Assembly (NCBI GenBank): GCA_002099625.1
Contig: GCA_002099625.1_4857.1
DNA: 64,000 bases
Source: Escherichia coli
GTDB lineage: Bacteria > Pseudomonadota > Gammaproteobacteria > Enterobacterales > Enterobacteriaceae
Reading direction: 5' to 3' (one strand)
The notes below the pieces were generated by a model. It worked only from the letters and a program-made list of their open reading frames with translations. It ran no database searches and was not told where the DNA came from. Of this stretch, positions 10,769-60,436 are shown piece after piece. Made by a program: the position numbers and the translations under genes. How positions within the stretch are numbered: position 1 is the stretch's first letter; each line of letters opens with the position of its first letter.

Positions 10769-10771
10769 GGC

Positions 10772-13194: not shown

Positions 13195-13207
13195 AATTTC
13201 CTCCAGA

Positions 13208-13252: not shown

Positions 13253-13264
13253 ACTCGTACGCTG

Positions 13265-13660: not shown

Positions 13661-13671
13661 GAGGACTCTCC

Positions 13672-15007: not shown

Positions 15008-15015
15008 CCTTTACC

Positions 15016-15830: not shown

Positions 15831-15920
15831 TTATTCACTCGATAATTAATGGGGTTAAAATCAAATCCATGTAACCTAGGGTCAATAGCGCCACTATCTC
15901 AATCGGCGTTAAATTCTCCA

Positions 15921-17298: not shown

Positions 17299-17326
17299 CT
17301 TTAATTCTCCTTAAGGGTGTCTTCAT

Positions 17327-28057: not shown

Positions 28058-28534
28058 TTAAAGCTCCTTTACCATATCCTGGTATTCAGTTCGGAATCCG
28101 AAACGTTCATAAAACGCAATAGCACGGTCGTTATTACCGAGCACGTTAAGCTGCATCCATGCGCAGCCTTTTGATTTGCCATAGTTCTCTACGGCTTCGA
28201 TCAGTTCATGGCCAACGCCTTGTGAACGAACCGATTCATCTACAAAAAAGTTATATACCCAGAGGAAACGTTGTCCCTTTTTGGTGTAGCCAAAGGTGAT
28301 GAAGCCAACAGCCACACCACGGTCATCAACGGCGCAAGCGCACAGCGTACCTTCACCCCAAACCTCCTCCAGTTTTGAGATTTGATTAAACCCTTCACGA
28401 CCGTTTAAGTCGGCGAGTTTTATTTTCTGATCGTCGTATAACTTGTTGTGTAGTCCTAACAAATCCGCGTAGTATTTCTTTCCATACGGGGAGTTGGGCT
28501 TGGTGACAAAAACGATTTTCATCACACCCTCCAA
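28058..28534 (-). CDS. GNAT-family N-acetyltransferase
   Basis: Motif A RSQGVGHELIEAV and motif B AIAFYERFGF; 158 aa. Confidence 0.65.
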   Translation of the reverse strand: MEGVMKIVFVTKPNSPYGKKYYADLLGLHNKLYDDQKIKLADLNGREGFNQISKLEEVWGEGTLCACAVDDRGVAVGFITFGYTKKGQRFLWVYNFFVDESVRSQGVGHELIEAVENYGKSKGCAWMQLNVLGNNDRAIAFYERFGFRTEYQDMVKEL

Positions 28535-29016
28535 TACATCTGGTAAGCACCTACCTTAAAGCCAGCTTTGTCGTAGAGCGACTTCGCGGCAGCGTTACCG
28601 GCGTTCACGGACAGGTGAACAACTGTACACCCTTTTTCCGTTGCGGATTTCTTTACCGCATCCATCAACGCGGTGCCGTAACCTTTACCACGTGCGCTGC
28701 TGCTAACGACCAGTGAGGATACCGACATCATCGTCACACCCTCTTCAGTCATCGTGCGGTATTGCGCAAAGCCATACAAGACACCGTCGTCCACGACCGC
28801 CAGTAAACGACCCCGGAAGCGCTCGGCTAACGATTTAGCCGGCGTAAAACGGACATTAATACCCGTCTCTTTTCGATAGCTTTCTATTTCGCTTTTGTCC
28901 AGCTCGTTATAAAGCGCGAGGATATCTGTGGAATATTTCCTGCCGTTAGCCGTGTCTGGCCCCACTATGGTAATAATCTTCATCAGTTCACCTCGGCCAG
29001 CGATTGCTTCGTCCAC
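28522..29016 (-). CDS. GNAT-family N-acetyltransferase
   Basis: Motif A ARGKGYGTALMDAV and motif B KSLYDKAGF; 164 aa; tandem with 28058..28534. Confidence 0.65.
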   Translation of the reverse strand: MDEAIAGRGELMKIITIVGPDTANGRKYSTDILALYNELDKSEIESYRKETGINVRFTPAKSLAERFRGRLLAVVDDGVLYGFAQYRTMTEEGVTMMSVSSLVVSSSARGKGYGTALMDAVKKSATEKGCTVVHLSVNAGNAAAKSLYDKAGFKVGAYQMYWRV

Positions 29017-38744: not shown

Positions 38745-38755
38745 CGGAGACCCCA

Positions 38756-41500
38756 ATGGAAGATATTAGTAAATTAACGGGCGACCCCGCGGTAGCTGCC
38801 ATACTGCGTAAGTCCACGAGCCCGTCGGCTCAGCAGCAACGCGGTAAGCGTGAAGATGGCGGCGTTACACCAACCCGTACAGAACTCACGGGCATTGCGA
38901 GTAGCCGCATTCGCACCGTTAAAAATGCCGAACGTATCTTTGATGCGCTCCCTGAGTTAGAGGTCATTGTTACCATCGCGACCTCCTCACTCCTGTCCAC
39001 AAAAGATTTGATTAACACCACGCTGATTTACGACAACGTGGCTGATATCCCGATCGACCTGCGTCAACAGTTGTTGGAACCTGTGCGTGAATTCCATGAC
39101 CACACGCGCCAGTTACCCAACAAACTGTATCAGTGGATTTACGATGCACTGAAATCCAAAGGCGCGAGCCCGGTGTTGCTGATTTCAGATACCGGATTCG
39201 ATGAACTCTTCGGCTTAAAGCCGTCTGTTGCAACCGAATCGTTGCGCCGTAGCCAATCTGACTTCTTTGAACGTCAGTTGGGTATCCTGGGCAAGATTGG
39301 CGGTGAAAACAAACCGAAGGTTGGTGTAGAAAGTATTCTGGGCCGTGCACGTGGCGCTGACAAGCCCACCAAGCCACAAACCATTAAACTTAACTTTGCA
39401 GCAGCCCCTAACAGTCCGTTTAAAGCAGACGGTATGTTAGCTTCCCTGGATATCGTTATCACCGACAACCCGCGTATTACCCTGCTACCAGAGGCTTATC
39501 GCCGTGTGGCACAGGAGAATGCTCGCACCGGCCTGTTCGGTCAGTTAGAGCAGTACGCATATGAACAACCTTCTACGCCGACAGGTGCGTCAGAGTATAA
39601 CGCTGACCAGTTCACAGACAGTGAACAAGAGAAGGCAAAACTCGGTTTAATCAACATCGGCGACCTCAACGAAGCGTACCAGAAAACGCCTGAGCAAAAG
39701 CTTTACGGCGAAGTACCGAAGATGAGTTTCTCCGATGCCAACAAAATCGAATACACGGAACGATTACTGCCAGCAGAGTCCACACTCCCGCTCGTTATCG
39801 GCGACGATGTTCGTAACCCCATAGGTTATCTGGCCATCGTTGACGAAATGGGTAACTTCATTAACTCGCGCTCCACACTTTACGGTGATGCGAACTTCAT
39901 GAACTACCTGAACAACGACGGTATGGTGGATTCAACAATCAACCGTGCGAATCTGGGGATGGGCAACACAACCCGAATCACACCAGACATTGCTAACCGC
40001 TTAACAGCGCGTTATGGTGAAATTGCTGAAGACCAGCTAACCAAAGCTCTGGGTGAGGCGTTGGGTGGTGCTGAGATTAGCATGACAGTAACCGAAACGT
40101 TCAGCCGTATCATGCTGGCGCGCCATCTGGCAAAACGTCATACGCAGGTTATCTATATTCCTGCGGAAAACCTTTGCTATTTTGCCACGGACTTTGATGA
40201 AGATGGTATCGGTGTATCTATTACCGAACGCTCGTTCGTTATCTCTACTGTCCGTATGGCGCTGTTGTTCGCTACCATGAACTCTGCGGTGTTGAACTCT
40301 GCACGTCACATGCAGTACGACATTGAGTTGGCACCAGATGACATGAACGGTCAGAAAACAATTGACCAGCTGAAAACAGACATCATGAACTCCTATAACC
40401 GTCGTCAACCGATGTGGGGGGACATGAACGACACCTGGGCAATGACGACAAACGCAGGTATTGCGTTTAACGTTATTGGTAACGACTACTACGGTAGTAC
40501 CAAAGTGTCTGTGTCGGACACTACGCCGGATTATAAATACCCGGATAAGGATTTCGACGAAGGTCTGTTACGACGTACTTGTCACATCGCAGGTGTTGAC
40601 CCTGACCTGGTAATGACCCCCGAGAACATCGAGTTTGCTTCACAGATCTTCTCTAAATCGTTACTGGTCACCCAGCAGGTTGTTAAGAAGCAAGAGATTC
40701 TCTCTAAGCCACTGACACGTTACGTAGTTAATGGGATGTTGGCCTCTCCGTCGTTGCAATCAGCGATGATTAAAATCATTGCAGAGTACATCAATGCTAA
40801 CGGCAATGGGATGACTACTGACCAGATTACGAAAAAGGTCTCTGAGTATCTGGCTGCGTTTATCAACGGTATGAAAGTAACCTTACCACCGCCAGACACC
40901 TCTGCAGCAGCTTCGCAGATGGAGCTGTTCGATAAACGTACGGAGTTCTTTGAGAAGCTGGCTGATCTGGTTGTAACGGATGACATTGCTGCGCAACTCC
41001 AGCAAGAAGGTATCTCGATGGACCCGAACGATCTGAAGACGATGATCAAATCCTTCTATACGCGCAACTGGCTGCGTAAACAAGGTATTGAAACCGACTT
41101 CTTCGATCTGGTTTACGACGATGATTCTCGTCAGGACAACATCACCATGATGACTGATGAAGCGATGGCTGCTTCGAAAACGCTGATTCAATTGGCGAAA
41201 CGTTTCACCGGGCGACTGGAAACGTTAGCGAAGAATGCCGACCTTGATCCTAACGATGCTTCCGGCGGATTCGGTGGTGGTTTTGATGCGGGCGGTGACA
41301 CCGGCGGTGGTGATGGGGATCTCGGCGGTGGGGGTGACGATGATTTAGACCTCGATCTCGATACGGATAACGGCACCGGTGGTGATAGTACAGAGGAAAC
41401 TACTGAGTCGACCGAAACCACGGAAACAACTACCGAGGGAACGGAAGGCACAGAAGGCGGTGAAGGAACTACCGACGACAACCCAGACAACGTCCTCTAA
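38756..41500 (+). CDS. large virion-associated protein, portal-like candidate
   Basis: Continuous 914-aa plus-strand ORF while minus frames are fragmented; C-terminal Gly/Asp/Thr/Glu low-complexity tail; portal assignment is speculative. Confidence 0.55.
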   Translation: MEDISKLTGDPAVAAILRKSTSPSAQQQRGKREDGGVTPTRTELTGIASSRIRTVKNAERIFDALPELEVIVTIATSSLLSTKDLINTTLIYDNVADIPIDLRQQLLEPVREFHDHTRQLPNKLYQWIYDALKSKGASPVLLISDTGFDELFGLKPSVATESLRRSQSDFFERQLGILGKIGGENKPKVGVESILGRARGADKPTKPQTIKLNFAAAPNSPFKADGMLASLDIVITDNPRITLLPEAYRRVAQENARTGLFGQLEQYAYEQPSTPTGASEYNADQFTDSEQEKAKLGLINIGDLNEAYQKTPEQKLYGEVPKMSFSDANKIEYTERLLPAESTLPLVIGDDVRNPIGYLAIVDEMGNFINSRSTLYGDANFMNYLNNDGMVDSTINRANLGMGNTTRITPDIANRLTARYGEIAEDQLTKALGEALGGAEISMTVTETFSRIMLARHLAKRHTQVIYIPAENLCYFATDFDEDGIGVSITERSFVISTVRMALLFATMNSAVLNSARHMQYDIELAPDDMNGQKTIDQLKTDIMNSYNRRQPMWGDMNDTWAMTTNAGIAFNVIGNDYYGSTKVSVSDTTPDYKYPDKDFDEGLLRRTCHIAGVDPDLVMTPENIEFASQIFSKSLLVTQQVVKKQEILSKPLTRYVVNGMLASPSLQSAMIKIIAEYINANGNGMTTDQITKKVSEYLAAFINGMKVTLPPPDTSAAASQMELFDKRTEFFEKLADLVVTDDIAAQLQQEGISMDPNDLKTMIKSFYTRNWLRKQGIETDFFDLVYDDDSRQDNITMMTDEAMAASKTLIQLAKRFTGRLETLAKNADLDPNDASGGFGGGFDAGGDTGGGDGDLGGGGDDDLDLDLDTDNGTGGDSTEETTESTETTETTTEGTEGTEGGEGTTDDNPDNVL

Positions 41501-42229: not shown

Positions 42230-43906
42230 TTAGTACAACACTGGTGCAGTTTTCTCACCATTGCTCAGAAGCAGATAGGTGTGCTGCGGCAGCTGCATCA
42301 ATACAATTGCATGTGGCACGTTTTCCTGCACAGCTTCGTAGATAGATACAACAGGGTCTGCGGTATTGCCCAAAGACGCTACCGTAACCACATCATGCTT
42401 ATCAACGGAATGGTACATGCCTGGAATTACAATAGTGAACTGGCTCTGAATCAGATTAACTACTTTGCCGGAATCGCTCAGCTTAATAGTCAGTTTGCGC
42501 AGAGAGTTCGCCACCATCAAGAACAGGTCACGGAACCAGTCTTCATATTCACTGACGCCGTTGTCGCCAGCGGTTGCAGTGAACAGATCTTTTACGAAGA
42601 AATCAATATCGCTGATTTTGCGTTCGAAATCGATGGCTTTGAACTTCGGCACATCTTTACCGCGCTTAGTGCCCAGCGACAGCGCATTGTGTACCAAGAA
42701 CGTGATGTTCGCCAGGTACGCATTAGCAAAGCGAGAAATCTCACTGATAACCACTTCTGCTTCGCTGCTGTTCGCAATCGCATAATCGTGCAGTTCTTTC
42801 GTGTTCTTACGCAGTTCATCGATCGTACGTTTCACCTTAGCCATGATAGTTTCAACATCTTCTACCAGCGCCAGGCTGTCGAGATCGGATTTCAACGCGT
42901 CGTGCTTAGCAACAAATTGCTTCATGCGTTCGCACATATCAGTGTTAACACCGACCAGATACGCGCGATAACTATCCCGTGCACGCACAATCAGGTCAGC
43001 CCCGTCGTAGAAAACAACCTCTTCATTACCGTTAAAGATATCTTGCAACGGTGTAGCCCAATCACGCGTTTCCGCGTAAACAGATTGCTTAATGCGACTG
43101 TTAGCTTCCTTCGCTGGAATCGACATTTTAAGCTCGGGGGTTTTCAGCTCGTGAAGTGCGTAGTCTTCCATCAAATCAATCTCCTGCAGAATGTTGTTAA
43201 TTGGGCCATTGGTAGTGTCCTTCTCGGTTTCTTCTGTTGCGCCGAGTGGGGAAAGCACTGGGTTATTAACTGTAGCATTAGACACCGGCATTGGTTGTAC
43301 AGGCACCTGTGCTGGTTCAGGCTGGGGCTGTTGTGCTGTGGCTGGGACTACTTGCGCCGGTTGTGGGTTCAGGATAGGATCACTAACCAGGTTAAGACCT
43401 GCACCGCCAGCAATCACGGTTAGTGCCGCATCCGTGTTACCAATCTTAACGCCACCGGATGGCGCAGAAGACATGGTCAAGCCATCAGTAACACGCACAC
43501 CGCCAGAACTGTTACCGCCCAGTAACCCGCCTGCGTTGCTACCACCACCTAAACCACCACTGCCACCCAAACCGCCGGACTGCTGAGAACGAATTTCGGC
43601 AAGAATCTTACCGACTTGTTCCCAAGCATTAACCAGTTTGGTGTGACGATCGTCGTTATACGCGTCGCCTGCGTTATGCACCTGCTGATAGGCAGCTGCT
43701 TTATACGCATCGACTGCATATGCGATAACCTGTGCTTCACTACCCCCTTTGGATGCTGCCCATGCCGCAACATACGTCGCAATCTTTAACGCCTGATCTG
43801 GCGGAATGCTACGACTACGCATCACGTTATTCAACTGCGACAGTACCGCGTCCTGATCGAGGTGTTTAACGATGACGTTTTTGATTTGTTCAACAGTAAT
43901 GCTCAT
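42230..43906 (-). CDS. hypothetical protein with Gly-rich and Pro/Gln-rich low-complexity regions
   Basis: 558-aa ORF; the antisense 380-aa plus ORF is judged spurious. Confidence 0.55.
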   Translation of the reverse strand: MSITVEQIKNVIVKHLDQDAVLSQLNNVMRSRSIPPDQALKIATYVAAWAASKGGSEAQVIAYAVDAYKAAAYQQVHNAGDAYNDDRHTKLVNAWEQVGKILAEIRSQQSGGLGGSGGLGGGSNAGGLLGGNSSGGVRVTDGLTMSSAPSGGVKIGNTDAALTVIAGGAGLNLVSDPILNPQPAQVVPATAQQPQPEPAQVPVQPMPVSNATVNNPVLSPLGATEETEKDTTNGPINNILQEIDLMEDYALHELKTPELKMSIPAKEANSRIKQSVYAETRDWATPLQDIFNGNEEVVFYDGADLIVRARDSYRAYLVGVNTDMCERMKQFVAKHDALKSDLDSLALVEDVETIMAKVKRTIDELRKNTKELHDYAIANSSEAEVVISEISRFANAYLANITFLVHNALSLGTKRGKDVPKFKAIDFERKISDIDFFVKDLFTATAGDNGVSEYEDWFRDLFLMVANSLRKLTIKLSDSGKVVNLIQSQFTIVIPGMYHSVDKHDVVTVASLGNTADPVVSIYEAVQENVPHAIVLMQLPQHTYLLLSNGEKTAPVLY

Positions 43907-43937: not shown

Positions 43938-45716
43938 TTAGCGGCCGATTTTAGCAATGTCTTCTTCGGTCGGTCTGATGTACGGGTCCAGTTTAGGATT
44001 CCGCATCATTACCAAACTTGGGTTGGTCTTCATGTACGGGTTGAGGATGTTCGCCTTAAACGGTGCCGACTTAGGAATATAATAGACGTTACCACATTCC
44101 AGATGCGACGCGGATGCGTGCTTAGTACGGTCGTTCAAGTTAACGGTCTTGCCTCCTTTCTTCGAACGCTTAGCATCGGTTTCGGTTTGACCGATGGCGT
44201 GCGTAGACACTGCCAATACCATTGATTCTGTAGAGGCATTGAAGAAACTGATACCGCCGTTGCTCGTAATGGTGCGCATCACCAGATTGAGCACGATCTG
44301 TTTGTTCAGTGCGTCTCGAATAGACTTCGCCGCTGTCTCTGGAGTCCGATGTTCCAACTGCCCCAGCTTCCAACGTATTTTCGAGATCGTTGTGGTAAAG
44401 CCACGTTGGCCCAACAGTAAGTAATCGGTTACCGTGAGACGTTTTCCGTACATAGACGGAATATCATCTTGTTTGGTAAGACGAGTACGCACCATCAGCT
44501 GCGTGGTATACCAGAGGAAATCAAACATATCCAAATCATCAGGGATGGACGGATCGTTTGCCATCAGCTCACCACGGAAGGTGCTGTTGACATAGCGTTC
44601 ACATTCCTGGAAGTGGCTGTCCATACTGCGACTCAGTTCGATATCCGAAGGCTTCAGTCCGCGAATACTGCGGCCCAACACTTCACGCCAAGACGCTGCA
44701 GAGTTGAGGTTTGCAATATCTTCGTCCATTGCCATTTCATTAATCTGTGTAAACAGCCCCGGCAGTGTTGGTGCACGACCGTTCTTACTGTTCTGTTTAC
44801 CTGCGTAATAGTGCGCCGCTTTGAAGAATGCGGCAGTCGCTACCAGCAACAGATGTTCGTTTTGATCCCAACGCCCTGCATCGGTGTTAGGCATATCTTC
44901 ACGTTTAACCAACAGCACGTACTGGATGGTCTTCGCGAGTTGTGGCTCACCGGATTGAATCACCACATACTTCGTTAAGTCCACATCACGTACTTTAATT
45001 GCTGGCCAAATCGCCACATCAACGCCCGCATAACGCTTCACGGCTTGTTTAAAGCCATAACGCCCAAAGAGCCAATACATCAGTGGCTTCTCATCGGTGT
45101 CGTGTCCAATCTGTCCGGTTGAGACAAACAGATTCGATGTACCTGGCAAGAACAGCTGCTCAGGGCGACCATTCACCAGAATCTTCGTTGGTTTCTTACA
45201 GAACTTGATCGACACCTTGCGAGTGAAGTCAAAGTTAATAAAGATACCACCATGCTCACGACATATACCAGGTTGATGGATTACAGGTGCTACGTGGTAC
45301 GTTGTACCATAGTAGTTCATTAAGCCGCCACGACGAATAAACGGCAGGCTCATTGGTCGTTGTACCGGGCGAGGATCACCTGGAACTCGGAACGAGGCCA
45401 TTACCATATACGTGTCAGTGGATGAGATGTTAATAATTGACCGGCCACGATTATTTCGTGAATTGTTATCCGACTTCGATAACTTAAAGATAAAAGCTTC
45501 AAACGGCGACATTTGGCGACAACCTAGTACCGTTAACCCTTCTGGTAATTTCGGGTTATCGATTTCATCATACGTCAACTCACGACGTAGAATGGTTGCC
45601 ACACGATCATGTATCCCATCTTTAGCTTGTGTGTACCCAACTCCTTCTGCAATTGCACGATTAAAAGGCACTATTTCGCCTGCCTCTTTAATCTTCCTAA
45701 TCGCATCTTTAAACAC
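43938..45716 (-). CDS. large hypothetical protein, possible virion protein
   Basis: 592-aa ORF. Confidence 0.55.
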   Translation of the reverse strand: MFKDAIRKIKEAGEIVPFNRAIAEGVGYTQAKDGIHDRVATILRRELTYDEIDNPKLPEGLTVLGCRQMSPFEAFIFKLSKSDNNSRNNRGRSIINISSTDTYMVMASFRVPGDPRPVQRPMSLPFIRRGGLMNYYGTTYHVAPVIHQPGICREHGGIFINFDFTRKVSIKFCKKPTKILVNGRPEQLFLPGTSNLFVSTGQIGHDTDEKPLMYWLFGRYGFKQAVKRYAGVDVAIWPAIKVRDVDLTKYVVIQSGEPQLAKTIQYVLLVKREDMPNTDAGRWDQNEHLLLVATAAFFKAAHYYAGKQNSKNGRAPTLPGLFTQINEMAMDEDIANLNSAASWREVLGRSIRGLKPSDIELSRSMDSHFQECERYVNSTFRGELMANDPSIPDDLDMFDFLWYTTQLMVRTRLTKQDDIPSMYGKRLTVTDYLLLGQRGFTTTISKIRWKLGQLEHRTPETAAKSIRDALNKQIVLNLVMRTITSNGGISFFNASTESMVLAVSTHAIGQTETDAKRSKKGGKTVNLNDRTKHASASHLECGNVYYIPKSAPFKANILNPYMKTNPSLVMMRNPKLDPYIRPTEEDIAKIGR

Positions 45717-45727: not shown

Positions 45728-46732
45728 TCAGAGAATCATCCCAACGAGTGCTACCCCTGCAGCCAAATACGCGGGAATGGATTTCAAGAACTCCGAGCTA
45801 TCTTTTCGCTGATAAGCTCGGGACTCGTATTGGTCTTTACGAACATCGGAACGCAACTTAAGCTCATTCGTCTGGATTGCGTTAAGGGTGTTAATCCTCT
45901 CCTTCTCCAGCGCCAGATTATTAAGTTGCGTACGATAATCGAGGTCTTGCCGATTCTTTTTCTCATCGAGATCTTGCAACTTGGCCTGATACGTGGCTTC
46001 CAGCTTCGCACGAACATCTCGCAACTCTGGAATGTTATCGAGCCACCGATAACGCCTCGCTTCATCTTCAGATGCAAACGCCCGGAACGGGGACATCGGG
46101 TCATCGAAAGCGTACATTATCATCTTACCCCCTTCGACACACTCCGCACCACCGATTACCATGTAAATACCCTCGTCGTAATACTTCGATCGAATCGGTT
46201 CGACTTCCAACATCGTTGTATAGAACCTCAGCCACTTTAAAGGTGCTGGGTCTTCGTACTTCTGCACAACTACCACGCCCAAGGCAAATTCTTTACGATC
46301 CCCTCCAGGCTTACCAATAACCTCAGAATCGAGTTTTACTGGTTGGGTAGAGAAAGCCATTCCTAGCTTCTTCAACACCACCAAGTCGCCTCGCATTAAT
46401 GCACCGATATCATCAACTACATACATCAGCGTTGTTTCGCCGTTCGTAGTTAATTCCTTACATATCTGCGCATACTGCTTTGGCGAATGTGCGTCGCGCA
46501 AACCAGATAGGTTAGCACCGTTCGCAAACACCGTATAGGTCACGTAAATAACAATCCCAAATTCCGCCGCTGTGGTGGACGACGGGGCTAAAACAAAATG
46601 CCCGCCACTGAGTTCAGTGACGTAAATGGGAAACCCGGTATTATTTTCGTACGTGATAGTCTTCGACACGGCACCACGGTGCATGGGCCGCTGGGTTAGC
46701 GTTGGCTGAACGTCTAAATCATAACGGTTCAT
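45728..46732 (-). CDS. hypothetical protein with C-terminal TM anchor
   Basis: Start at ATG 46732 (MNRYDL); C-terminus IPAYLAAGVALVGMIL; class B promoter 35 nt upstream. Confidence 0.5.
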   Translation of the reverse strand: MNRYDLDVQPTLTQRPMHRGAVSKTITYENNTGFPIYVTELSGGHFVLAPSSTTAAEFGIVIYVTYTVFANGANLSGLRDAHSPKQYAQICKELTTNGETTLMYVVDDIGALMRGDLVVLKKLGMAFSTQPVKLDSEVIGKPGGDRKEFALGVVVVQKYEDPAPLKWLRFYTTMLEVEPIRSKYYDEGIYMVIGGAECVEGGKMIMYAFDDPMSPFRAFASEDEARRYRWLDNIPELRDVRAKLEATYQAKLQDLDEKKNRQDLDYRTQLNNLALEKERINTLNAIQTNELKLRSDVRKDQYESRAYQRKDSSEFLKSIPAYLAAGVALVGMIL

Positions 46733-46766
46733 TGAGCATCCCAGTAATAATACCAAAAGAATTATT

Positions 46767-46790
46767 CACGTAGATAATATCTATCTCAGA
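46767..46790 (-). promoter_or_regulatory. class B phage promoter-like motif
   Basis: Minus-strand TCTGAGATAGATATTATCTACGTG. Confidence 0.5.
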
Positions 46791-46837: not shown

Positions 46838-47536
46838 TTAGGGTATTAGGCGTTGGGCTATTTCGCGGAGTTGGTCGCGGGTTAAATCAGCCAACTTCTG
46901 GTCGCCGAAGCCCAACTTCAGACCCAGCTCGTATCCAGCTTGCGGATACGTGTTCGTGTTTGCTACTGAGAGGAGTGCATCGGCTATCTTTACCATCGTT
47001 AACTCGAGAGACGCATACGGGGCGGGGATCGGCTGATTCACGATTTGGTAATTATAACGCACTGCGGCGTTATCGTAGTCAAACTCCATCCTTCTGCCGA
47101 GAACGTTAAACGACTCCGCAGAATAACTACCAAATGGGTGATTGGCTTTTTCCCACAAATCTTTCCGTTCAGTAAACCCAGTCGCGAAGTTCTGACGTAT
47201 GGTGTCGAATATTTGCGTTGCCTGGCTAGGGTGTATATTTTTCAGCTCATTGTAGTCGTAGTCGGCGATGGAATATAGAGTGAACACAACACCGTTTATA
47301 TTTAACTGCGGATAATCCATCCGCAGACTATCATCACCTTGTAAATGAAGTTCCCACATCCTCACCCACTGCAATATCGCACTTACCGCATCGTGACTGA
47401 GATAAAAATTAGTAGGTTCTTCAGAATTTTCACGGAAGGGAACAGAGCATTCCGATGCAAAAAAGCCGGCTGCCATAAATCCTCTGCCGTCGAACATAGG
47501 CGCAACTAATCTTGATTTTTCTAAATTGATTACCAT
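46838..47536 (-). CDS. hypothetical protein
   Basis: 232-aa ORF; SD TAAGGAG; class B promoter 30 nt upstream. Confidence 0.55.
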   Translation of the reverse strand: MVINLEKSRLVAPMFDGRGFMAAGFFASECSVPFRENSEEPTNFYLSHDAVSAILQWVRMWELHLQGDDSLRMDYPQLNINGVVFTLYSIADYDYNELKNIHPSQATQIFDTIRQNFATGFTERKDLWEKANHPFGSYSAESFNVLGRRMEFDYDNAAVRYNYQIVNQPIPAPYASLELTMVKIADALLSVANTNTYPQAGYELGLKLGFGDQKLADLTRDQLREIAQRLIP

Positions 47537-47566: not shown

Positions 47567-47595
47567 TCTCTCCCTAAGATAATATCTATCTATAA
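47567..47595 (-). promoter_or_regulatory. class B phage promoter-like motif
   Basis: Minus-strand TTTATAGATAGATATTATCTTAGGGAGAG. Confidence 0.55.
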
Positions 47596-47599: not shown

Positions 47600-47642
47600 T
47601 TAGAAAAAAAGAAAAAGCTTACTCCCCGAAGGGAGTAAGCTA
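47600..47642 (-). terminator. intrinsic terminator
   Basis: Stem gcttactccc/gggagtaagc with cgaa loop; T-run on minus strand. Confidence 0.75.
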
Positions 47643-47671: not shown

Positions 47672-49969
47672 TTAGCCGCCAGCGCCTTCACCGCCAGTAC
47701 CTGGCTGGGTACCGCCGCCAACATCACCAGCATTACCACCGTCAGTACCGCCGGTACCGTTGGAAGTAGTAGTGACGTTGAACGCCAGTTTCTCTTCCAC
47801 GAACTTGGTGATACCTTTAATCCAGATCAGACCAGTGATCGGGCAGTGGCAGATGTGCGCGTTACGAGGCTGTACTGCCAGCTCTTTGCTGGTAGCGCCG
47901 TTACGCTGGATGTTGATGTTGGTTACCATGATCGGAGACCAGAAGTGGTTACCCCAGTTCAGAACACAGTAAGAACCATCATCAGCGGTTGGAACTTTCA
48001 GAACCCACTGCAGGCGGCGAGTCCAGCTGCCGTCAGCTTCGTTCTTCACACGCCAGCGGTCATCGTTGGTGGTGATAACTTCGTACTCGTAGCGATCGCC
48101 CAGCAGACGCTGGTCACCCTGAACCAGCAGCAGCATTGCAGCAGTCGGTTCGTCAGTTGCGATAACAACTTTCGGCAGTGCGTTCGGGTCCGCAGTCAGC
48201 AGGCGCAGAGCCGGCATGAAGCGAGAGTCCTGGATAGCACGAGTTACCTGGTCACCGATACGCTGTACCAGACCCTGACGGGCGTTGATGAGCGCATCTT
48301 TGGTATCCAGAGACTGGATCACTTTGTCCACTTCGTAGTCGCTTTCGCTGTACCACGGAGCAACCCAGTGACGGCCCAGGCCGCGGATAGCAGGTTTGTC
48401 CCACGGAGTGATCATGGACGCAGCTGCGTTCTTAACCGCTTCGGTGTAAGACAGAGTCTGAGTGATAGCCAGCATTTCGTTACGGATGTTAACCGCAGAA
48501 ACGAGGTCGTCCAGACGTTCGGTGTCGTCGTATTCAACGCCAACCGGAGATTTGGTCATGATCGGAGAACCGTACTGCAGTTTGTAGTTCTCTTGTTCCC
48601 AAATCGGGTCGAGCAGAAGGCCCTGGGTTCTCCGGTTCTCGTTGGTACGAGTACCGTCGAAGCGCCAGCCCAGCAGCTCCAGTTTCAGGTTGTCGATGAT
48701 CACTTTACCGGTGCCGCTTTCGATATCAACAGCAGTACCAGTTGCGTCGTACAGACCTTCGATTTCCAGAGACGGTGCAGTCACGTCAACACGACCAGAG
48801 AACTGACCGTTGGTGAACAGAGACATGCTGATGTTCATGGAATAACGAATGGTGTAATCGTTCTGTGCCAGAGCGGCCAGTGCCGGGATTTCAGCACCTT
48901 TCCAGTCCAGAGACTTGGCGTTCAGGGAGAACACGGTGCGACGGAACTGCAGGACCAGCTCACGGCCATCACCTTCAGGAGGACGCTGGAAAGTAGCGAA
49001 CTGCATGTCGCGTACGTTCAGTTTGATCAGCGCACCATCTTTCGCTTCTTCGGTCGGCTTACGCACAGACAGCAGCAGGCTACCCAGCGCCGCACCCGGT
49101 GCGATTTCGTCGGTTTCATCGTAACCTTCCTGCACGATACCCGGATGGGCAGACAGCTGGAACAGGTTCAGACGACGTTCAGAGAAGCTCAGGTAGTTGG
49201 TCGGATACGCCGGCACACGACCCAGCTGAACGTTTTCGTTTTCGATGATGTCTTCGGATACGAAGAACTTCGCGTTCTCGCCGGTTTCCATCACGTAAGG
49301 AACGATACGGATAGCATCGTCCTGCAGGACTTTGTGGTTAGACAGCGCGTTATGCAGCGGCTGACGGTTGTCTTCAACCACGTCTTTGGTCAGCAGGGCG
49401 TTCAGGATACCACGAGTTACAGTAGTAACTTTGGTACGAACGGTGATGCCGACGTCGTTGGTGTCCACAGTGATGGTCGGGAACAGGGTTTCTGCAAACT
49501 TGGATTGAGTTTCCAGAGCACGCACGTTCAGCGTCCAGGTCAGACCCAGGTTTTTGTCCAGGTCTTTGTTGGTGTAGTATTCGGTTGCGACCAGCGGAGT
49601 TTTACCGTAGTCAGCAGCCAGAGATGCTGCACCGGAAATAGCGATCGGCATGTAGCTGGCATATTCCGGCTTCGCGCTCTCAGCAGCAACACGGGTCATG
49701 AAGTCATCTTCGTGACCGGCAGCAGCCAGAATCATCGCAGAAGCAACCTGAGCAGCGTGGCTCATGGTTTTGCCAGGGTTTACAGCTTCGTAGTGCTGCT
49801 GAGCAGTGTCACGCAGGTTGGTGAAGCCGGCAGCATTTTTACGTACAGATTCGCCAACGGCTACGGTTTGCCATACGTCATTAGCGGAAGAGCCTGCCTT
49901 GGCAGCAGCGACCAGAGCATTGCCCTGCTGAACCAGCTGGTCCAGACTAGCGATACGGGTATCTTTCAT
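47672..49969 (-). CDS. abundant large structural protein, major capsid or sheath candidate
   Basis: 765-aa ORF with strongly biased codon usage, strong downstream terminator, Gly-rich C-terminal tail; the antisense 715-aa plus ORF has R/V/F/Q-rich junk-like composition. Confidence 0.55.
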   Translation of the reverse strand: MKDTRIASLDQLVQQGNALVAAAKAGSSANDVWQTVAVGESVRKNAAGFTNLRDTAQQHYEAVNPGKTMSHAAQVASAMILAAAGHEDDFMTRVAAESAKPEYASYMPIAISGAASLAADYGKTPLVATEYYTNKDLDKNLGLTWTLNVRALETQSKFAETLFPTITVDTNDVGITVRTKVTTVTRGILNALLTKDVVEDNRQPLHNALSNHKVLQDDAIRIVPYVMETGENAKFFVSEDIIENENVQLGRVPAYPTNYLSFSERRLNLFQLSAHPGIVQEGYDETDEIAPGAALGSLLLSVRKPTEEAKDGALIKLNVRDMQFATFQRPPEGDGRELVLQFRRTVFSLNAKSLDWKGAEIPALAALAQNDYTIRYSMNISMSLFTNGQFSGRVDVTAPSLEIEGLYDATGTAVDIESGTGKVIIDNLKLELLGWRFDGTRTNENRRTQGLLLDPIWEQENYKLQYGSPIMTKSPVGVEYDDTERLDDLVSAVNIRNEMLAITQTLSYTEAVKNAAASMITPWDKPAIRGLGRHWVAPWYSESDYEVDKVIQSLDTKDALINARQGLVQRIGDQVTRAIQDSRFMPALRLLTADPNALPKVVIATDEPTAAMLLLVQGDQRLLGDRYEYEVITTNDDRWRVKNEADGSWTRRLQWVLKVPTADDGSYCVLNWGNHFWSPIMVTNINIQRNGATSKELAVQPRNAHICHCPITGLIWIKGITKFVEEKLAFNVTTTSNGTGGTDGGNAGDVGGGTQPGTGGEGAGG

Positions 49970-49981
49970 TTCAAGTTTACC

Positions 49982-50506
49982 TTATTTAGATAAATGACAT
50001 GCGTACAACTGCGTCAGCACTTCGTGCGCAGCAAACTGCGTCGACGTACTGAACGTATCATCCACGACACGAGTCTTGGGACGCATATATTTAAAAAGTT
50101 CTGCGCAGAACATCTTTTTCGCAGCGTGGTCTTCACTTAAAGAAAAACCCGGTCCGGATTTAGCTTCTGCAAAAGACGCCACAACAACATCGCCACGTTG
50201 TGAGAACACCCAACGTAAACGACCGTCGAATGATTCCCCATATAAATCAGCAAGGGTTTCATTCGTACCTTTCTCAACCAGGTTTAAGACCTGGTCATAA
50301 TAAAGAGTCGGAAGTGCAGGTGGTGCCATAATCGATTTATAAATCGAAATAGGGTCACTCACTGGCAGTATGATGGAACTAAAGCCCGACGAGCAGTCAT
50401 ATAACCAGTTAAAGAAGCTTGCTTGGAGTTCCTCCAACTTTTTAACGCCAGCCCCTTTATCTATGTTAGATTGAACTTCCCACGGTGGACTAAAACGAAT
50501 TTGCAT
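49982..50506 (-). CDS. hypothetical protein
   Basis: Start at ATG 50506 (MQIRFSPPW), 15 nt from the divergent plus-strand start. Confidence 0.5.
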   Translation of the reverse strand: MQIRFSPPWEVQSNIDKGAGVKKLEELQASFFNWLYDCSSGFSSIILPVSDPISIYKSIMAPPALPTLYYDQVLNLVEKGTNETLADLYGESFDGRLRWVFSQRGDVVVASFAEAKSGPGFSLSEDHAAKKMFCAELFKYMRPKTRVVDDTFSTSTQFAAHEVLTQLYACHLSK

Positions 50507-50520
50507 TTTAAGGATGCTCC

Positions 50521-52083
50521 ATGAATAGTAAAATGATGTTGATAACCGCCTTAGCCGCACTGTATACAGAATCTATGCTGACGGACCCTAGCAAGGATCA
50601 TGATGTCATAAGAAAAGTTCTGATGCAGATCAAGCTTCCGGAATATGCGGAAGATGGCGAAGAGCGCTTTGCACTCATCGAGATCAAGGACATTATCACA
50701 TCTATCATAGACGGCGGCATGGAATACGACCACGCGAGCGTTATGAAGCGCTTGAAGCTGGCCACCACTCAAGTACGTCCTCTATACGATACGATTACCA
50801 AATTCCTCGAAGACGATTTGCCCGAGGAAGAAGACAAACGTACCGAGCATCTTAATCGACAACTGTCTCAATATTATTTCCAATTACGTCAATGTTTACA
50901 GAGCGTCGAACTCAAAACAAAAATGGGTCGCGCGTTCGGAGCATTGAATGGAACTGAGACACGTGTTGATCTGAACACCGCAGTGCTCGAACTCAAAGAG
51001 GCGCTATCTACGTTCGGTGAACGCTCTCATAATAAGATTCCATCACTGGTTGGTGAGCTGGTTACGGATAATCGTGCTCCGTTTGTTAAAGTGTTCGACT
51101 CGATTAACAAGAAAGCAGCAGGTAATGGTTTGCAGACGGGCTGGAAAGCCATTAACCAAATGCTCGGTTGTAACAAAGGGATTACCGAAGAACTGTGGCT
51201 AATGCCGGCGTTACCTTTTAACTGTAAGTCTTTGTTCAGTCTCTTACTGAGCTTGTCGATTCCTATCTTCAACACGCCTGAGAAAGTAATGGCGGATGTG
51301 AAGGGCACACTGCAACCAATTATTCTTGACTTGAGTTTAGAAAACGAACTCGACGTTAACTTAGCTTACGGCTATCAAGCACTGTACGGTCATTTTGAAG
51401 GACAAGTTCCACAGATGACCATTGCCCAAGATGCGACCGCTGAAGAGAAGTTAGCACACACAACAGCAATGTCTGATTACCTCTGTGGTAAGATTCGCGC
51501 AAACGGTTGGGACTACGTTTTCCAAAAGCACACCAACTCCGATTTTAAAGTGCACTACATCAACGACCTTATTCTCGACTTACGTCGTCGCGGTTATCAT
51601 GTTGTTGGCATTCGCGCAGACTACTTAGGCACAATCAGCAAAGCAGGACACGGCAACGGTATTGCCGGGAGTGATATCAAAGAAATTTATCGTATTGCTC
51701 GTAACATCCAAGTGGTACGCAACCGTGGGTTCTTAATTGCCCCACACCAGATTTCCCCAGAAGGTAAGCGCTTAAAAGCGTTAGACCCGGTAGGTTTCTG
51801 TAAGAACTTACCTGGTCGTGGTCTTTACGATAGTTGTTCGAGCCTTGATAACGAGGCCGATGGTGAAATGTATTTTAACAAGCGTGTGGTCAACGGCCAT
51901 AGCTTCTTAGAAGTTCAACGCGGTAAGCACCGCACCATTATCGATACTAAAGAATCTTATCACTACACAGTGATACCTTTCCAGGATGTTGGCATCCTGC
52001 CTTGGGATTGTGATAAAGAAGAAACCGTAACAGCGTCGTCTATCAACTTCTTCACCGGTGGAATGGGTGATGATTTGTTCTAA
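50521..52083 (+). CDS. hypothetical protein, plus-strand
   Basis: Continuous 520-aa plus ORF with SD AAGGA; minus frames fragmented. Confidence 0.55.
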   Translation: MNSKMMLITALAALYTESMLTDPSKDHDVIRKVLMQIKLPEYAEDGEERFALIEIKDIITSIIDGGMEYDHASVMKRLKLATTQVRPLYDTITKFLEDDLPEEEDKRTEHLNRQLSQYYFQLRQCLQSVELKTKMGRAFGALNGTETRVDLNTAVLELKEALSTFGERSHNKIPSLVGELVTDNRAPFVKVFDSINKKAAGNGLQTGWKAINQMLGCNKGITEELWLMPALPFNCKSLFSLLLSLSIPIFNTPEKVMADVKGTLQPIILDLSLENELDVNLAYGYQALYGHFEGQVPQMTIAQDATAEEKLAHTTAMSDYLCGKIRANGWDYVFQKHTNSDFKVHYINDLILDLRRRGYHVVGIRADYLGTISKAGHGNGIAGSDIKEIYRIARNIQVVRNRGFLIAPHQISPEGKRLKALDPVGFCKNLPGRGLYDSCSSLDNEADGEMYFNKRVVNGHSFLEVQRGKHRTIIDTKESYHYTVIPFQDVGILPWDCDKEETVTASSINFFTGGMGDDLF

Positions 52084-54588: not shown

Positions 54589-54640
54589 GGTAATACTCCT
54601 TTAGCTTAATAGTCGATTGAGTTGATAGATTGTCTTCTAT

Positions 54641-54664
54641 CACCTAGGTAATATATATCTGAAA
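54641..54664 (-). promoter_or_regulatory. class A phage promoter-like motif
   Basis: Minus-strand TTTCAGATATATATTACCTAGGTG followed by hairpin GATAG/CTATC and leader. Confidence 0.6.
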
Positions 54665-54689
54665 TTATTTTTATTCAGAGTACACCCTC

Positions 54690-54795
54690 TATAACGCTCT
54701 CAAACGCGTTTTGAGAGCTTTTATCACTTTAGAGGGTCGTTCTACCGTTAGAGTGGCTTTAGAAGGTTGTGTGTGCGTTTAGAGGGCTAAAATAA
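54690..54795. repeat. intergenic palindrome plus four TTAGARKG direct repeats
   Basis: Inverted repeat gctctcaaa-cgcgt-tttgagagc at 54696..54718; repeats tttagaggg, gttagagtg, tttagaagg and tttagaggg follow over about 60 bp. Confidence 0.5.
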
Positions 54796-54824
54796 AGAGA
54801 CCTGGTCTCACAAGGAGACCAGGC
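54786..54824 (-). terminator. intrinsic terminator
   Basis: Stem cctggtctc/gagaccagg; A-run on plus strand upstream. Confidence 0.65.
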
Positions 54825-54830
54825 ACACTT

Positions 54831-57526: not shown

Positions 57527-58882
57527 CTACCTCGCGTATTTCAAAATCACGTAGACCATCGGGACGTAATAGAACTGACTGTCCTTCGGTAAAGCCAGCA
57601 CCAATTCTGCTAAACGCGCAGCCACTTCACTAGGTACTGGTTGTTTGTTCAGATACAGGTACAAACAATGCTCCAGAACCGAGCTATACGAGCCGCTATA
57701 GAACGTTTCGCTTAACAGGTAGGGTTTATACGTCAACGGCAGAAAAGCCACCATATCCTCGCCTGCGTTGCCCTGATACTCAGGGAACATAACCGGTTCG
57801 AATGCTTCGAACTCTGGCCACTCCCCATCGTACGTTGCCAACTGACGAATCTGTGATGTAAAGTAACGCGTTGAACTGAACTGTGACCATGCGATGGTGT
57901 TGCGGGTCTGCATCGTTCTGAACGTGCGCGGGTTAACTGCGCTGCATTCTTTCTCGACGTAAGGTAGCAGTTCTGGCTGTTGATTTAACAACACCGTGAA
58001 CAGCGTTTCGATATCTTGCACGGGTTTCGGCGGGTGCGGGTAAATACGGATATCTTTACCAACGGTTCGAAGACCGATACCCTTCACAAACATCGCCAAG
58101 AAGACGTCGTAGTAGCCGCCTGCCTTTAACCCGTCGAGTTTCCAGTCGCGTGGATAAGCAAGGGTTTCTAAACTGGTATCGTAGAAGCGACGGACAAACG
58201 TCGTCTCAATGTCCTTAATGCGGTCTCCCAGCTCCAGGAACGTACGATATTCGTTGGGGGTCAGTAAGGTATCACCACCGGTCCACGCACGCTCACGGAC
58301 GTAATGGAGCGTTCTGACGGTACACAGACGAATCGTCTCTGCAATCTGCGGCGTAATCTCGTACAACATCGTGTAACGTATTTGATACGTTGCAATTTTG
58401 TTGTTCGACATTCGGGTAACGGTAGTGATGTTAAACAGTCCGTGTCGATGATCACCTATTGGGGCAACGAAGAAGTCTCCTTCATTCGGTGTAATCGATG
58501 CTACCAAGGTCGACGTCCCGGTCAGTTCGAAAGTCTTACGTTGTTCGTCCTGCGTACGGTCGAGCGGTGCGTTAACACGTAATGACAGATTAACAATCTT
58601 AAGCAGCTGTTGCGTAGGGCTGTCATTCTGAGTATCGAACATCGTCTTCGGATCGTTACGACCCGACAACGCGTGATAAAAATCAACCGGCCATTCAGAA
58701 CCTTCGTTGTATTGCAGGAGATACTGTTTCGGAATCCTGTCGAAGTCCGTTACCGTGGTGCGGGTTGGAATCGTTACCAAGTTGCTGGCTTCTTTCACCC
58801 CGTCCTGCGGTTTATTGATAATCGGAATTTCAGGTTCAACAGGAACGAATTTAGTATCACCCCTCTTGTTCGCCTTGAGCAT
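57527..58882 (-). CDS. hypothetical protein, possible virion protein
   Basis: 451-aa ORF. Confidence 0.55.
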   Translation of the reverse strand: MLKANKRGDTKFVPVEPEIPIINKPQDGVKEASNLVTIPTRTTVTDFDRIPKQYLLQYNEGSEWPVDFYHALSGRNDPKTMFDTQNDSPTQQLLKIVNLSLRVNAPLDRTQDEQRKTFELTGTSTLVASITPNEGDFFVAPIGDHRHGLFNITTVTRMSNNKIATYQIRYTMLYEITPQIAETIRLCTVRTLHYVRERAWTGGDTLLTPNEYRTFLELGDRIKDIETTFVRRFYDTSLETLAYPRDWKLDGLKAGGYYDVFLAMFVKGIGLRTVGKDIRIYPHPPKPVQDIETLFTVLLNQQPELLPYVEKECSAVNPRTFRTMQTRNTIAWSQFSSTRYFTSQIRQLATYDGEWPEFEAFEPVMFPEYQGNAGEDMVAFLPLTYKPYLLSETFYSGSYSSVLEHCLYLYLNKQPVPSEVAARLAELVLALPKDSQFYYVPMVYVILKYAR

Positions 58883-60396: not shown

Positions 60397-60430
60397 ACGC
60401 AAAAAAAAGAAAGGGAGCCGAAACTCCCTT
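60397..60430 (-). terminator. intrinsic terminator
   Basis: Stem gggag/ctccc with ccgaaa loop, A-run on plus strand; nested in a larger imperfect inverted repeat. Confidence 0.6.
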
Positions 60431-60436
60431 CGTGTT

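Follow-up and report, generated by a model that had tools for sequence, protein, structure and literature searches.

Closest described phages

Much of what can be said about the DNA analysed here derives from work on two phages, Seoulvirus SPN3US (NC_027402 / JN641803) and Pseudomonas phage phiKZ. In SPN3US, gp81 has been experimentally assigned as the portal, and the prohead protease removes 130 residues from gp75, cutting after Glu, which site was mapped by mass spectrometry (PMC5694885). The capsid is a T=27 shell with 1560 copies of the major capsid protein (MCP) (PMC5694885, PMC7552025), and both that architecture and the cleavage are also supported by PMC11297242. [quoted passage not shown] An early-promoter consensus of the phiKZ type has been tabulated as TATATTAC for phiKZ and TTTCARRYAKATATTATYWAAGTGWA for N1M2 (PMC7058600). 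The seoulviruses, SPN3US among them, belong to a clade that lacks the tubulin PhuZ (PMC11724907; PMC12768965), whose hosts are Erwinia, Salmonella, Proteus, Escherichia and Cronobacter (PMC11724907). Finally, more than 300 Seoulvirus genomes have been recognized in bacterial assemblies as contigs of lytic phages that are not integrated, under the terms "BAPS" (PMC12768965) and "persistent virulent phages" (bioRxiv 10.1101/2024.12.31.630880).

Identity of the window

The window, by which we mean the whole 64-kb stretch of DNA under analysis, is almost certainly a piece of a Seoulvirus genome—that is, of an SPN3US-like jumbo myovirus of the PhuZ-less branch of the Chimalliviridae—and the open reading frame (ORF) flagged in it is, with the same confidence, the MCP gene. 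Seven collinear blocks of 95.4–98.1% identity, 97.05% on average, align by blastn with SPN3US and make up 94.1% of the window, the remaining ~6% having no counterpart there; and comparison with the SPN3US annotation, together with blastn, gives the gene order of SPN3US genes 55–139 in reverse orientation. For the genus, the required nucleotide identity with SPN3US is ~70% or more across the greater part of the sequence, which value the window exceeds, and its 25-kb end segments are 96–98% identical to many Seoulvirus records. The first-pass annotation, which had suggested a phiKZ/SPN3US-like enterobacterial jumbo phage, was accordingly correct down to the named phage, and nothing that we found argues against a jumbo phage. 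Its estimate of about 49 percent GC was likewise close to the measured 0.480. The greedy, non-overlapping ORF set that we used accounts for 95% of the window with 90 ORFs, of which 79 lie on the minus strand; and since 35 are shorter than 150 aa, the many small accessory genes that had been remarked upon are indeed there. The principal features are collected in Table 1. Pfam returned no match for the window's homologues of the portal, gp82, gp77, gp76 and gp61 or for the 232-aa ORF. Because only 64 kb of the genome is visible, we turned to relatives to look for chimallin, the virion RNA polymerase (vRNAP) genes, the sheath and the terminase, and to check whether PhuZ is absent.

Table 1. Coordinates of the features discussed, in positions of the 64-kb window.
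Feature	Position	Strand	Remarks
Tail protein, gp124 homologue, 1005 aa	7751..10768	-	PHROG 2871 "tail protein", E 0
gp122 homologue variant, 649 aa	11245..13194	-	prophage-type tail-fibre module fused in frame to DUF7941
gp82 homologue	36561..38756	-	virion structural protein, divergent from portal gene; PHROG 3222, E 2e-286
Portal gene, 914 aa	38756..41500	+	homologue of SPN3US gp81 and phiKZ gp129; PHROG 3004
gp78 homologue	42230..43906	-	PHROG 8185, E 2e-231
nvRNAP beta N-terminal fragment	43938..45716	-	homologue of SPN3US gp77 and phiKZ gp123
gp76 homologue, unassigned	45728..46756	-	PHROG 7286, E 4e-151
Early-promoter-like motif	46772..46786	-	heads operon of gp76, gp77 and gp78 homologues
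232-aa ORF, unassigned	46838..47536	-	between MCP gene and gp76 homologue; PHROG 15414
Early-promoter-like motif AGATAGATATTATCT	47577..47591	-	upstream of 232-aa ORF; one of 9 copies
Other early-promoter-like motif copies	2811, 7687, 18186, 24762, 26463, 54646, 63151	-	
Intrinsic terminator	47616..47641	-	11-bp stem, TTCG loop, T-run; just 3' of MCP stop codon; terminator scan
MCP gene, 765 aa	47672..49969	-	homologue of SPN3US gp75 and phiKZ gp120; expected HK97 fold and T=27 capsid
MCP C-terminal tail, residues 733-765	47675..47773	-	Gly-rich, low complexity; translation
MCP propeptide, N-terminal 130 residues	49580..49969	-	ends in conserved protease site LVATE(130)/YYTNK
Antisense ORF, 715 aa, within MCP gene	47846..49993	+	in codon register with MCP gene; rejected as a gene
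gp74 homologue, 174 aa	49982..50506	-	directly upstream of MCP gene; PHROG 8266, SPN3US annotation
DnaB-like replicative helicase, gp73 homologue	50521..52083	+	PHROG 3213, E 4.5e-201
Head-to-tail joining protein, gp62 homologue	57527..58882	-	Pfam PF24214, E 5e-61; PF24215, E 2e-18

Within the genus, the phage might belong to a species other than Seoulvirus SPN3US, namely one of those recently split off from assembly-derived genomes, Seoulvirus having been enlarged from 1 to 6 species (PMC12768965). By our own arithmetic, identity times coverage to SPN3US comes to ~91% within the 64-kb window, under the usual 95% species line; no single record in the phage collection was the best match to all segments of the window; and for the first 25 kb the best phage records cover just 88–89%. 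Against such a separation, the structural genes of the window are almost identical to those of SPN3US, the visible part is only a quarter of the genome, and indels in accessory regions count heavily in a 64-kb sample, so that we regard a distinct species as possible, with the balance inclining the other way.

The annotation of the window is thus settled as Seoulvirus, which genus has already been well studied by genetics, proteomics and cryo-EM, and the SPN3US gene map can now serve as the reference for every other finding in it. The identity of the phage and that of its capsid gene are already known, the feature itself is ordinary, and the identification adds little biology.

The major capsid protein gene

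The MCP gene is a single ATG-initiated ORF with exact coordinates, and an open frame of 765 codons would by chance have a probability in 48% GC DNA of ~(61/64)^765, or ~1e-16 (own arithmetic). Its product matches the Pfam profile PF25620 PhiKZ_MCP with E 7.6e-226 (751.6 bits, versus a cut-off of 27) over 634 of the 635 profile positions, and PHROG 3231 "major head protein" with E 1.7e-297; a PDB search returned jumbo-phage capsid proteins, including phiKZ gp120 (8y6v) at E 1.2e-28. At the DNA level the gene is 99.0% identical to that of SPN3US and 99.9% to that of Salmonella phage SPLA5c, and in 19 Seoulvirus records the identity of the annotated MCP gene falls between 99 and 99.9%. A full-length protein alignment with SPN3US gp75 leaves two differences, D743N and the deletion of one Ala, both of them in the Gly-rich C-terminal tail. 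The structural protein of roughly 765 aa that had been noted from its size is therefore the MCP.

Size by itself would also permit a tail sheath, that of SPN3US being 681 aa long, or another large structural protein of a non-jumbo phage family. The SPN3US sheath gene, however, sits elsewhere in the genome (227140-229185); the nearly complete match to the PhiKZ_MCP profile and the two-position difference from an experimentally identified MCP speak against a sheath; and tblastn with the protein gave 224 matches, among which all the records in the listed sample were phages of 167–316 kb. The best matches, moreover, were to neither a sheath nor a non-jumbo family, so that we consider that alternative extremely improbable and retain the assignment as MCP.

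The GC content of the gene, 0.55, is higher than that of any other ORF in the window, and the codons TTA, CTA and TCA are absent from it, compared with 34 per 1000 codons in the other ORFs; at average codon usage, the probability of such a run is ~1e-11. This codon bias fits a very high expression, and in that sense also the first-pass description of the protein as abundant. An antisense ORF of 715 aa inside the gene was considered and rejected as a gene, being most likely a by-product of the codon bias, because it lies in codon register with a gene devoid of TTA, CTA and TCA, which triplets are the reverse complements of the stops.

By homology to SPN3US gp75 and phiKZ gp120, the protein would adopt the HK97 fold with an extra insertion domain, and some 1560 copies would form a T=27 shell around a dodecameric portal, encoded 6 kb away. 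The (S/A/G)-X-E cleavage motif is present at the end of the propeptide, LVATE-130 being exactly as in SPN3US gp75 in the protein alignment. During maturation, the phage prohead protease would then be expected to strip the first 130 residues after ATE-130, as inferred from the cleavage in that relative.

Portal and neighbouring genes

The 914-aa protein, which had been singled out as portal-sized, is the portal: it matches PHIKZ129 in PDB 9xpe (E 5.9e-48), present there in 12 chains as expected for a portal, as well as the "Portal Protein gp36" of PDB 11ed (E 2e-26). There are 17 differences from SPN3US gp81, and the protease sites ATE-161 and AQE-254 are both conserved. The divergently oriented gp82 homologue corresponds to a gene annotated in SPN3US as "virion structural protein 9"; the SPN3US counterpart of the tail protein, gp124, is annotated as "tail-associated protein".

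Upstream of the MCP gene, the gp74 homologue is probably co-transcribed with it; the gp73 homologue diverges from the gp74 homologue, with 14 bp between the two start codons. The gp77 homologue, two genes downstream from the MCP gene, matches chain E of PDB 7ogp (PHIKZ123) with E 3e-20 and is the nvRNAP beta fragment. The first-pass annotation had placed the split RNA polymerase genes elsewhere in the genome: they are present in the reference genome, but one of them, this fragment, lies inside the window beside the capsid gene. With respect to the two split multisubunit polymerases, then, the window contains the nvRNAP beta fragment, and the remaining subunits were seen in the reference annotation only. 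As to the other genes of this group, the 232-aa ORF is missing in SPN3US, where blastn shows a gap, and is present by tblastn in most other seoulviruses and in the Erwinia relatives; the true start of the gp76 homologue is probably inside the ORF, because the annotated SPN3US gene measures 1005 bp; and a PDB sequence search with the gp78 homologue gave no match.

Promoter motif and transcription

The compact, host-independent-looking promoters that had been described proved to be real elements. With up to 1 mismatch allowed, the 15-nt motif AGATAKATRTTAYYT occurs 9 times versus 0.08 expected, always on the minus strand, which is the coding strand; that number was reached in 0 of 100 shuffles, and an independent repeat search recovered the same 9-copy family (D1). 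Sigma-70-like sites around the MCP gene, for their part, numbered 7 versus 7.7 expected, so that they are not enriched. In the ORF set of the window, 8 of the 9 motif sites precede the next start codon on the minus strand by 30–113 nt, and several directly follow an intrinsic terminator. The SPN3US loci carry the same motif on the gene-sense strand at syntenic positions, including two copies between gp75 and gp76. As an AT-rich sequence with a TATATTAC-type core, AGATAKATRTTAYYT agrees with the consensus table of PMC7058600; and its resemblance to early promoters that were predicted or mapped in other phages of the phiKZ type suggests that it is an early promoter.

By analogy with those relatives, the expression of the phage would be independent of the host RNA polymerase. 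The RNA polymerase packaged in the virion would be expected to read the conserved early promoters, one of which stands at the head of the operon with the nvRNAP beta fragment gene, and the non-virion polymerase, once assembled, would then transcribe late genes such as the gp74–MCP unit. No early motif directly precedes this unit, which ends in a strong intrinsic terminator. The only late-promoter consensus published for phiKZ, TATG, is too short for scoring upstream of the unit.

Chimallin and tubulin in the relatives

A nucleus-shell gene had been predicted to lie elsewhere in the genome, and a chimallin gene is indeed present in relatives. The candidate in SPN3US, a 617-aa protein (15768-17621), was found in 73 records of the clade, 33 of which are Salmonella phage records, and is 64% identical to Asesino gp39, a chimallin verified with GFP; in addition, the nvRNAP beta' gene follows the 617-aa gene in SPN3US and gp39 in Asesino. 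Compared with phiKZ gp54, the SPN3US protein gave nothing significant by BLASTP, no match in Pfam and none in the PDB at E up to 10, so that the link to chimallin was made indirectly, through Asesino gp39 and through those homologues that carry Pfam PF25677. On the window's own contig the chimallin gene was not located, the exact-sequence look-up giving other contigs only.

The tubulin gene, which had been predicted along with it, is not to be expected, because the clade is without PhuZ. A tblastn search with phiKZ PhuZ (E up to 1), in a collection that holds ~33 Seoulvirus-type Salmonella records, returned 194 phage records, of which 2 are named Salmonella, the one listed being the 210-kb SPLA10; PMC11448039 and PMC12571901 contain no explicit statement about PhuZ in SPN3US. 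Membership in the Chimalliviridae is unaffected by this absence, because PhuZ is common in the family and is neither a core nor a defining gene.

Occurrence in bacterial isolate assemblies

The exact MCP, portal and gp122-fusion proteins of the window carry accessions of Salmonella or E. coli isolate assemblies, and the contigs that encode them measure 240–244 kb; those of 242–244 kb agree with the genome size of ~240 kb of the genus. One Logan contig, SRR4237890_27 (244,086 bp), is 100% identical to positions 8245-16194 of the window over 7,950 bp. The fact that NCBI files identical proteins under the names Salmonella enterica and Escherichia coli could be taken to mean that the window comes from a bacterial chromosome, as host sequence or as an integrated prophage, which explanation we regard as having next to no likelihood: the carrier contigs have the size of a whole Seoulvirus genome, the window is collinear from end to end with the genome of a lytic phage, scans of the 64 kb for tRNA and Rfam RNA genes found none, the SPN3US annotation of the stretch contains no integrase, and unintegrated Seoulvirus contigs in assemblies have already been described in the two papers cited above. 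The window is probably one more of the Seoulvirus genomes from bacterial isolate assemblies, and such an occurrence, though already published, is of modest practical interest with regard to host range and phage therapy.

The gp122 tail-fibre fusion

The gp122 homologue carries at its N-terminus a tail-fibre module of ~470 aa (1.47 kb), predicted to form an (alpha/alpha)6 barrel; structure prediction was needed because a PDB sequence search with the 649-aa fusion gave no match. This fusion, with its sugar-enzyme-like module, was the only non-reference feature noticed. From the predicted fold, which is that of a carbohydrate enzyme, the module could be a new receptor-binding or polysaccharide-degrading device. 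A tentative reading, to which we assign somewhat less than an even chance, is that the window represents an uncultured Seoulvirus lineage persisting in a carrier-like manner in a Salmonella or E. coli isolate, whose adsorption would have been altered by a module that gp122 (177 aa, DUF7941) gained from the side tail fibres of lambdoid prophages. [quoted passage not shown] The fusion is of modest practical interest for work on host range and phage therapy.

Comparison with known phages

With SPN3US the window shares its gene order, the MCP cleavage site ATE-130 and the portal sites ATE-161 and AQE-254, the portal being 913 aa long in SPN3US and 914 aa in the window. Unlike SPN3US, the window has the 232-aa ORF after the MCP gene, an additional acetyltransferase paralogue (28522-29016) and the tail-fibre module fused to the gp122 homologue; furthermore, its gp134 homologue is longer, its gp133 region has diverged, and it lacks gp60.

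With phiKZ the window has in common the families of the MCP (gp120), the portal (gp129) and the nvRNAP subunit (gp123), as represented by PF25620 and PDB 8y6v, 9xpe and 7ogp, as well as the proximity of the MCP and nvRNAP beta-fragment genes and the TATATTAC-type early-promoter core; to judge from relatives, the likeness would extend to a T=27 capsid of the HK97 type and to an N-terminal MCP propeptide cleaved by a protease. The MCP identity, however, is only 23.5%; phiKZ encodes the PhuZ tubulin, which is absent in seoulviruses; its chimallin is of the Phikzvirus type, and neither BLASTP nor Pfam detects any similarity between it and that of Seoulvirus; and phiKZ has a Pseudomonas host and a 280-kb genome.

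The window shares its PhuZ-less clade with Erwinia phage Asesino and other chimalliviruses that have no PhuZ (Erskinevirus and relatives), and the host genera of that clade recur among the MCP matches. The Erwinia members have an MCP identity of 64–86% to the window and differ from it in host genus and accessory genes.

Capsid Gene and Phage Identity

The first-pass annotation proposed a phiKZ/SPN3US-like enterobacterial jumbo phage, and its descriptive claims (ORFs of about 765 and 914 aa, a GC content of about 49%, many small genes) fit the ORF and GC data. The flagged interval is filled by a single ORF that starts with ATG and encodes 765 aa, the second named protein is a 914-aa ORF on the opposite strand, and the GC of the window is 0.480; in a greedy, non-overlapping set of 90 ORFs, which set covers 95% of the window, the minus strand carries 79, and 35 fall below 150 aa.

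The 765-aa protein, described earlier as an abundant structural protein, is indeed the major capsid protein (MCP). The protein matched the Pfam family PF25620 ("Bacteriophage PhiKZ major capsid protein gp120"; E 7.6e-226, spanning 634 of the 635 positions in the profile), PHROG 3231 ("major head protein"; E 1.7e-297), and, in the PDB, four capsid proteins of jumbo phages, among them phiKZ gp120 (8y6v; E 1.2e-28), to which the identity is 23.5%. In DNA the gene shares 99.9% identity with its annotated counterpart (major head protein) in Salmonella phage SPLA5c and 99.0% with the one in SPN3US, the reference Seoulvirus; 59 phage records covered at least 80% of the gene, and tblastn gave 224 matches, all the records among the matches listed being phages of 167–316 kb. 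The protein has two differences from SPN3US gp75, a substitution (D743N) and a lost Ala, and both fall within its Gly-rich C-terminal tail. That gp75 has been identified experimentally as the MCP; it outnumbers every other virion protein, 1560 copies forming a T=27 shell, and the prohead protease removes its 130-residue propeptide (PMC5694885; PMC7552025). The context of that cleavage, LVATE-130|YYTNK, is intact in the protein of the window, where the same processing is predicted. In phiKZ gp120 the HK97 fold is supplemented by an insertion domain (PMC11297242).

A 715-aa ORF runs antisense to the MCP gene in the same codon register. The MCP gene contains no TTA, CTA, or TCA codon, although these make up 34 of every 1000 codons in the remaining ORFs; their absence leaves the antisense frame free of stops, so that this ORF is most likely a codon-bias artefact and not a gene.

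The SPN3US genome aligned by blastn in seven collinear blocks in reverse orientation, from SPN3US 116811 to 55500, together covering 94.1% of the window at 95.4–98.1% identity (weighted mean, 97.05%); the window therefore corresponds to SPN3US genes 55–139. The other Seoulvirus isolates SPLA, SPFM, SEGD1, Proteus phage 7, and phage 1252 matched at 96–98%, with the best match differing between segments of the window. Because no single record was best for all segments, the phage, as judged from its sequence, represents one more variant within the genus Seoulvirus. The MCP, the portal, and the collinearity of the whole window with SPN3US thus support the proposed phage type, and neither the flagged gene nor the phage genus is new.

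Portal and RNA Polymerase Genes

The 914-aa protein, previously called portal-sized, corresponds to the portal: it matched PHIKZ129 at E 5.9e-48 (9xpe, a 12-chain entry) and, at E 2e-26, an entry named "Portal Protein gp36", and its SPN3US counterpart is gp81. The latter is the assigned portal and is processed at ATE-161 and AQE-254 (PMC5694885), both of which motifs are conserved in the window.

A strong intrinsic terminator follows the MCP gene, and beyond it lie a 232-aa ORF, the gp76 homologue, and a 592-aa protein that matched PHIKZ123, a subunit of the non-virion RNA polymerase of phiKZ (nvRNAP; 7ogp, E 3e-20). The phiKZ GP123 is a beta-like subunit with the beta2 lobe (PMC7618050), and SPN3US gene 77 is the N-terminal fragment of nvRNAP beta, gene 78 being essential (Thomas et al., PMC5105663). 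From that match and that report, one split-RNAP gene lies inside the window, the capsid gene being 2 kb away. The expectation that such genes would lie elsewhere in the genome accordingly holds in part: six further genes are annotated "RNA polymerase beta subunit" in the SPN3US RefSeq record, but one fragment is here, beside the capsid gene.

[quoted passage not shown]

Promoter Motif

The intergenic regions of the window share a conserved element. The sequence AGATAKATRTTAYYT gave nine matches with at most one mismatch, all on the minus (coding) strand, versus 0.08 expected, and a repeat search grouped these nine sites into one 29-nt family. In eight of the nine the next start codon in the ORF set lies 30–113 nt downstream; several sites closely follow a terminator. 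Sigma-70-like sites around the MCP gene were at background (7 found versus 7.7 expected). The earlier impression of compact, host-independent-looking promoters holds. The extended motif, TTTCAGATATATATTACCTAGGTGA, agrees with the published phiKZ-type early-promoter consensus, namely TATATTAC in phiKZ, TTTRARR.BTATATTACDWHDGTG in 201phi2-1, and TTTCARRYAKATATTATYWAAGTGWA in OBP/N1M2 (PMC7058600).

SPN3US loci also carry the motif, oriented as the genes are, and one such copy immediately precedes an RNAP subunit gene (29014). In the window, one copy heads the gp76-gp77-gp78 operon. In the phiKZ scheme the injected virion polymerase transcribes the early genes; by analogy, the position of that copy would fit early transcription of the operon. 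No copy lies directly upstream of the gp74-MCP unit, which would suit a late gene; the late consensus of phiKZ, TATG, is too short to score. We found no transcript mapping for Seoulviruses in the literature, and the temporal reading of the motif is our inference.

The sites fall into two subtypes, AGATATATATTACYT and AGATAGATRTTATYT, which may reflect two regulatory classes. Downstream of two AGATATATATTACYT sites (24762 and 54646) lies a conserved leader of about 27 nt that ends in a ribosome-binding site (AATCGACTATTAA..TAAAGGAGTATT). One intergenic region, at 242 bp longer than is usual in the window, has several short CTCTAAA-like repeats lying between a terminator and a copy of the motif.

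Features of the window discussed in the text
Feature	Position	Strand
MCP gene (gp75 homologue)	47672-49969	-
Antisense 715-aa ORF	47846-49993	+
Portal gene (gp81 homologue)	38756-41500	+
Terminator 3' of MCP gene	47641-47616	
232-aa ORF (PHROG 15414), between MCP gene and gp76 homologue	46838-47536	-
Motif copies bracketing the 232-aa ORF	47577-47591; 46772-46786 (heads gp76-gp77-gp78)	-
AGATATATATTACYT sites	2811; 24762; 54646; 63151	-
AGATAGATRTTATYT sites	7687; 18186; 26463; 46772; 47577	-
Leader copies (repeat family D4)	6938; 24709; 54592; 62285	
Long intergenic region	54589-54830	
Divergent start codons, helicase/gp74-MCP	50504-50523	
649-aa protein (gp122 fusion)	11245-13194	-
Acetyltransferase paralogue (164 aa, PHROG 3810), between gp94 and gp95 homologues	28522-29016	-
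gp134 homologue	3342-4145	-
Region with ~790 bp not found in SPN3US	2917-4553	
gp133 region	4163-4553	
Site lacking SPN3US gene 60	60423-60435	

Nuclear Shell and Tubulin

The nuclear-shell gene predicted for the rest of the genome has a counterpart in relatives. SPN3US has a diverged chimallin (Laughlin et al., PMC9365700), and a 617-aa protein (SPN3US 15768-17621) adjoins an RNAP subunit gene, which is the phiKZ gp54-gp55 arrangement. This protein is 64% identical to Asesino gp39, which, GFP-tagged, was shown to form the nuclear shell; it occurs in 73 records of the clade, 33 of them Salmonella phage records, and some homologues carry Pfam PF25677 matches. BLASTP, Pfam, and PDB searches found no direct similarity between it and phiKZ chimallin.

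The designation gp244 is ambiguous: RefSeq ACQ60_gp244 is the 617-aa candidate, while the GenBank-numbered gp244 would be the 240-aa YP_009153538 (SPN3US 220023-220745), the vRNAP beta' C-terminus according to Thomas et al. (PMC5105663). The citation of YP_009153538 as the SPN3US chimallin (bioRxiv 10.1101/2024.12.31.630880) looks like a numbering mix-up.

A tubulin gene, also predicted, is not to be expected. The study of Asesino delimits a chimallivirus clade with Erwinia, Salmonella, Proteus, Escherichia, Enterobacter, Vibrio, and Cronobacter hosts that lacks PhuZ in every member, and its genome table includes SPN3US (PMC11724907); Seoulvirus has likewise been discussed in the context of PhuZ loss (PMC12768965). 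With phiKZ PhuZ, tblastn at E <=1 matched 194 records, only two of them named Salmonella, one of which, among the matches listed, is a 210-kb phage. Apart from this corollary, the original interpretation is supported.

Comparison With Known Seoulviruses

The most notable difference from SPN3US is a 649-aa protein that replaces gp122 (177 aa, DUF7941). Its N-terminal ~470 residues resemble the C-terminal portion of side tail fibres from lambdoid prophages (57–60% identity) and are joined in frame to the gp122/DUF7941 domain. This fusion was not found in any phage record of the collection; it occurs on a few isolate-assembly contigs of 242–244 kb, and the architecture is shared by one 59%-identical variant. 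The AlphaFold model (mean pLDDT 81), confident over approximately residues 1–470, has a beta-sandwich followed by an alpha/alpha barrel, and Foldseek returned (alpha/alpha)6 sugar isomerases, epimerases, and glycosidases (E down to 4e-8); these matches suggest a carbohydrate-binding or carbohydrate-cleaving fibre module.

SPN3US lacks the 232-aa ORF, yet retains both flanking motif copies, 198 bp apart; the ORF has the same place in most Seoulviruses and Erwinia relatives. It is ancestral in the clade, and its absence from SPN3US is a loss. Also absent from SPN3US is an extra GNAT-type acetyltransferase paralogue, the window containing several acetyltransferase-like genes. The gp134 homologue has 267 aa instead of 146 because of the ~790 bp not found in SPN3US, the gp133 region is too diverged to align, and SPN3US gene 60 (~630 bp) is missing, as in SPLA5c.

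Proteins identical to the MCP, the portal, and the gp122 variant are filed under accessions of isolate assemblies from Salmonella enterica and E. coli, on contigs of 240–244 kb (up to 244,183 bp); one contig of 244,086 bp (Logan SRR4237890 contig 27) is 100% identical to the window over 7,950 bp (8245-16194). Seoulvirus contigs in isolate assemblies are already known, more than 300 unintegrated genomes having been reported in bacterial assemblies (PMC12768965; bioRxiv 10.1101/2024.12.31.630880), which published finding the present data fit.
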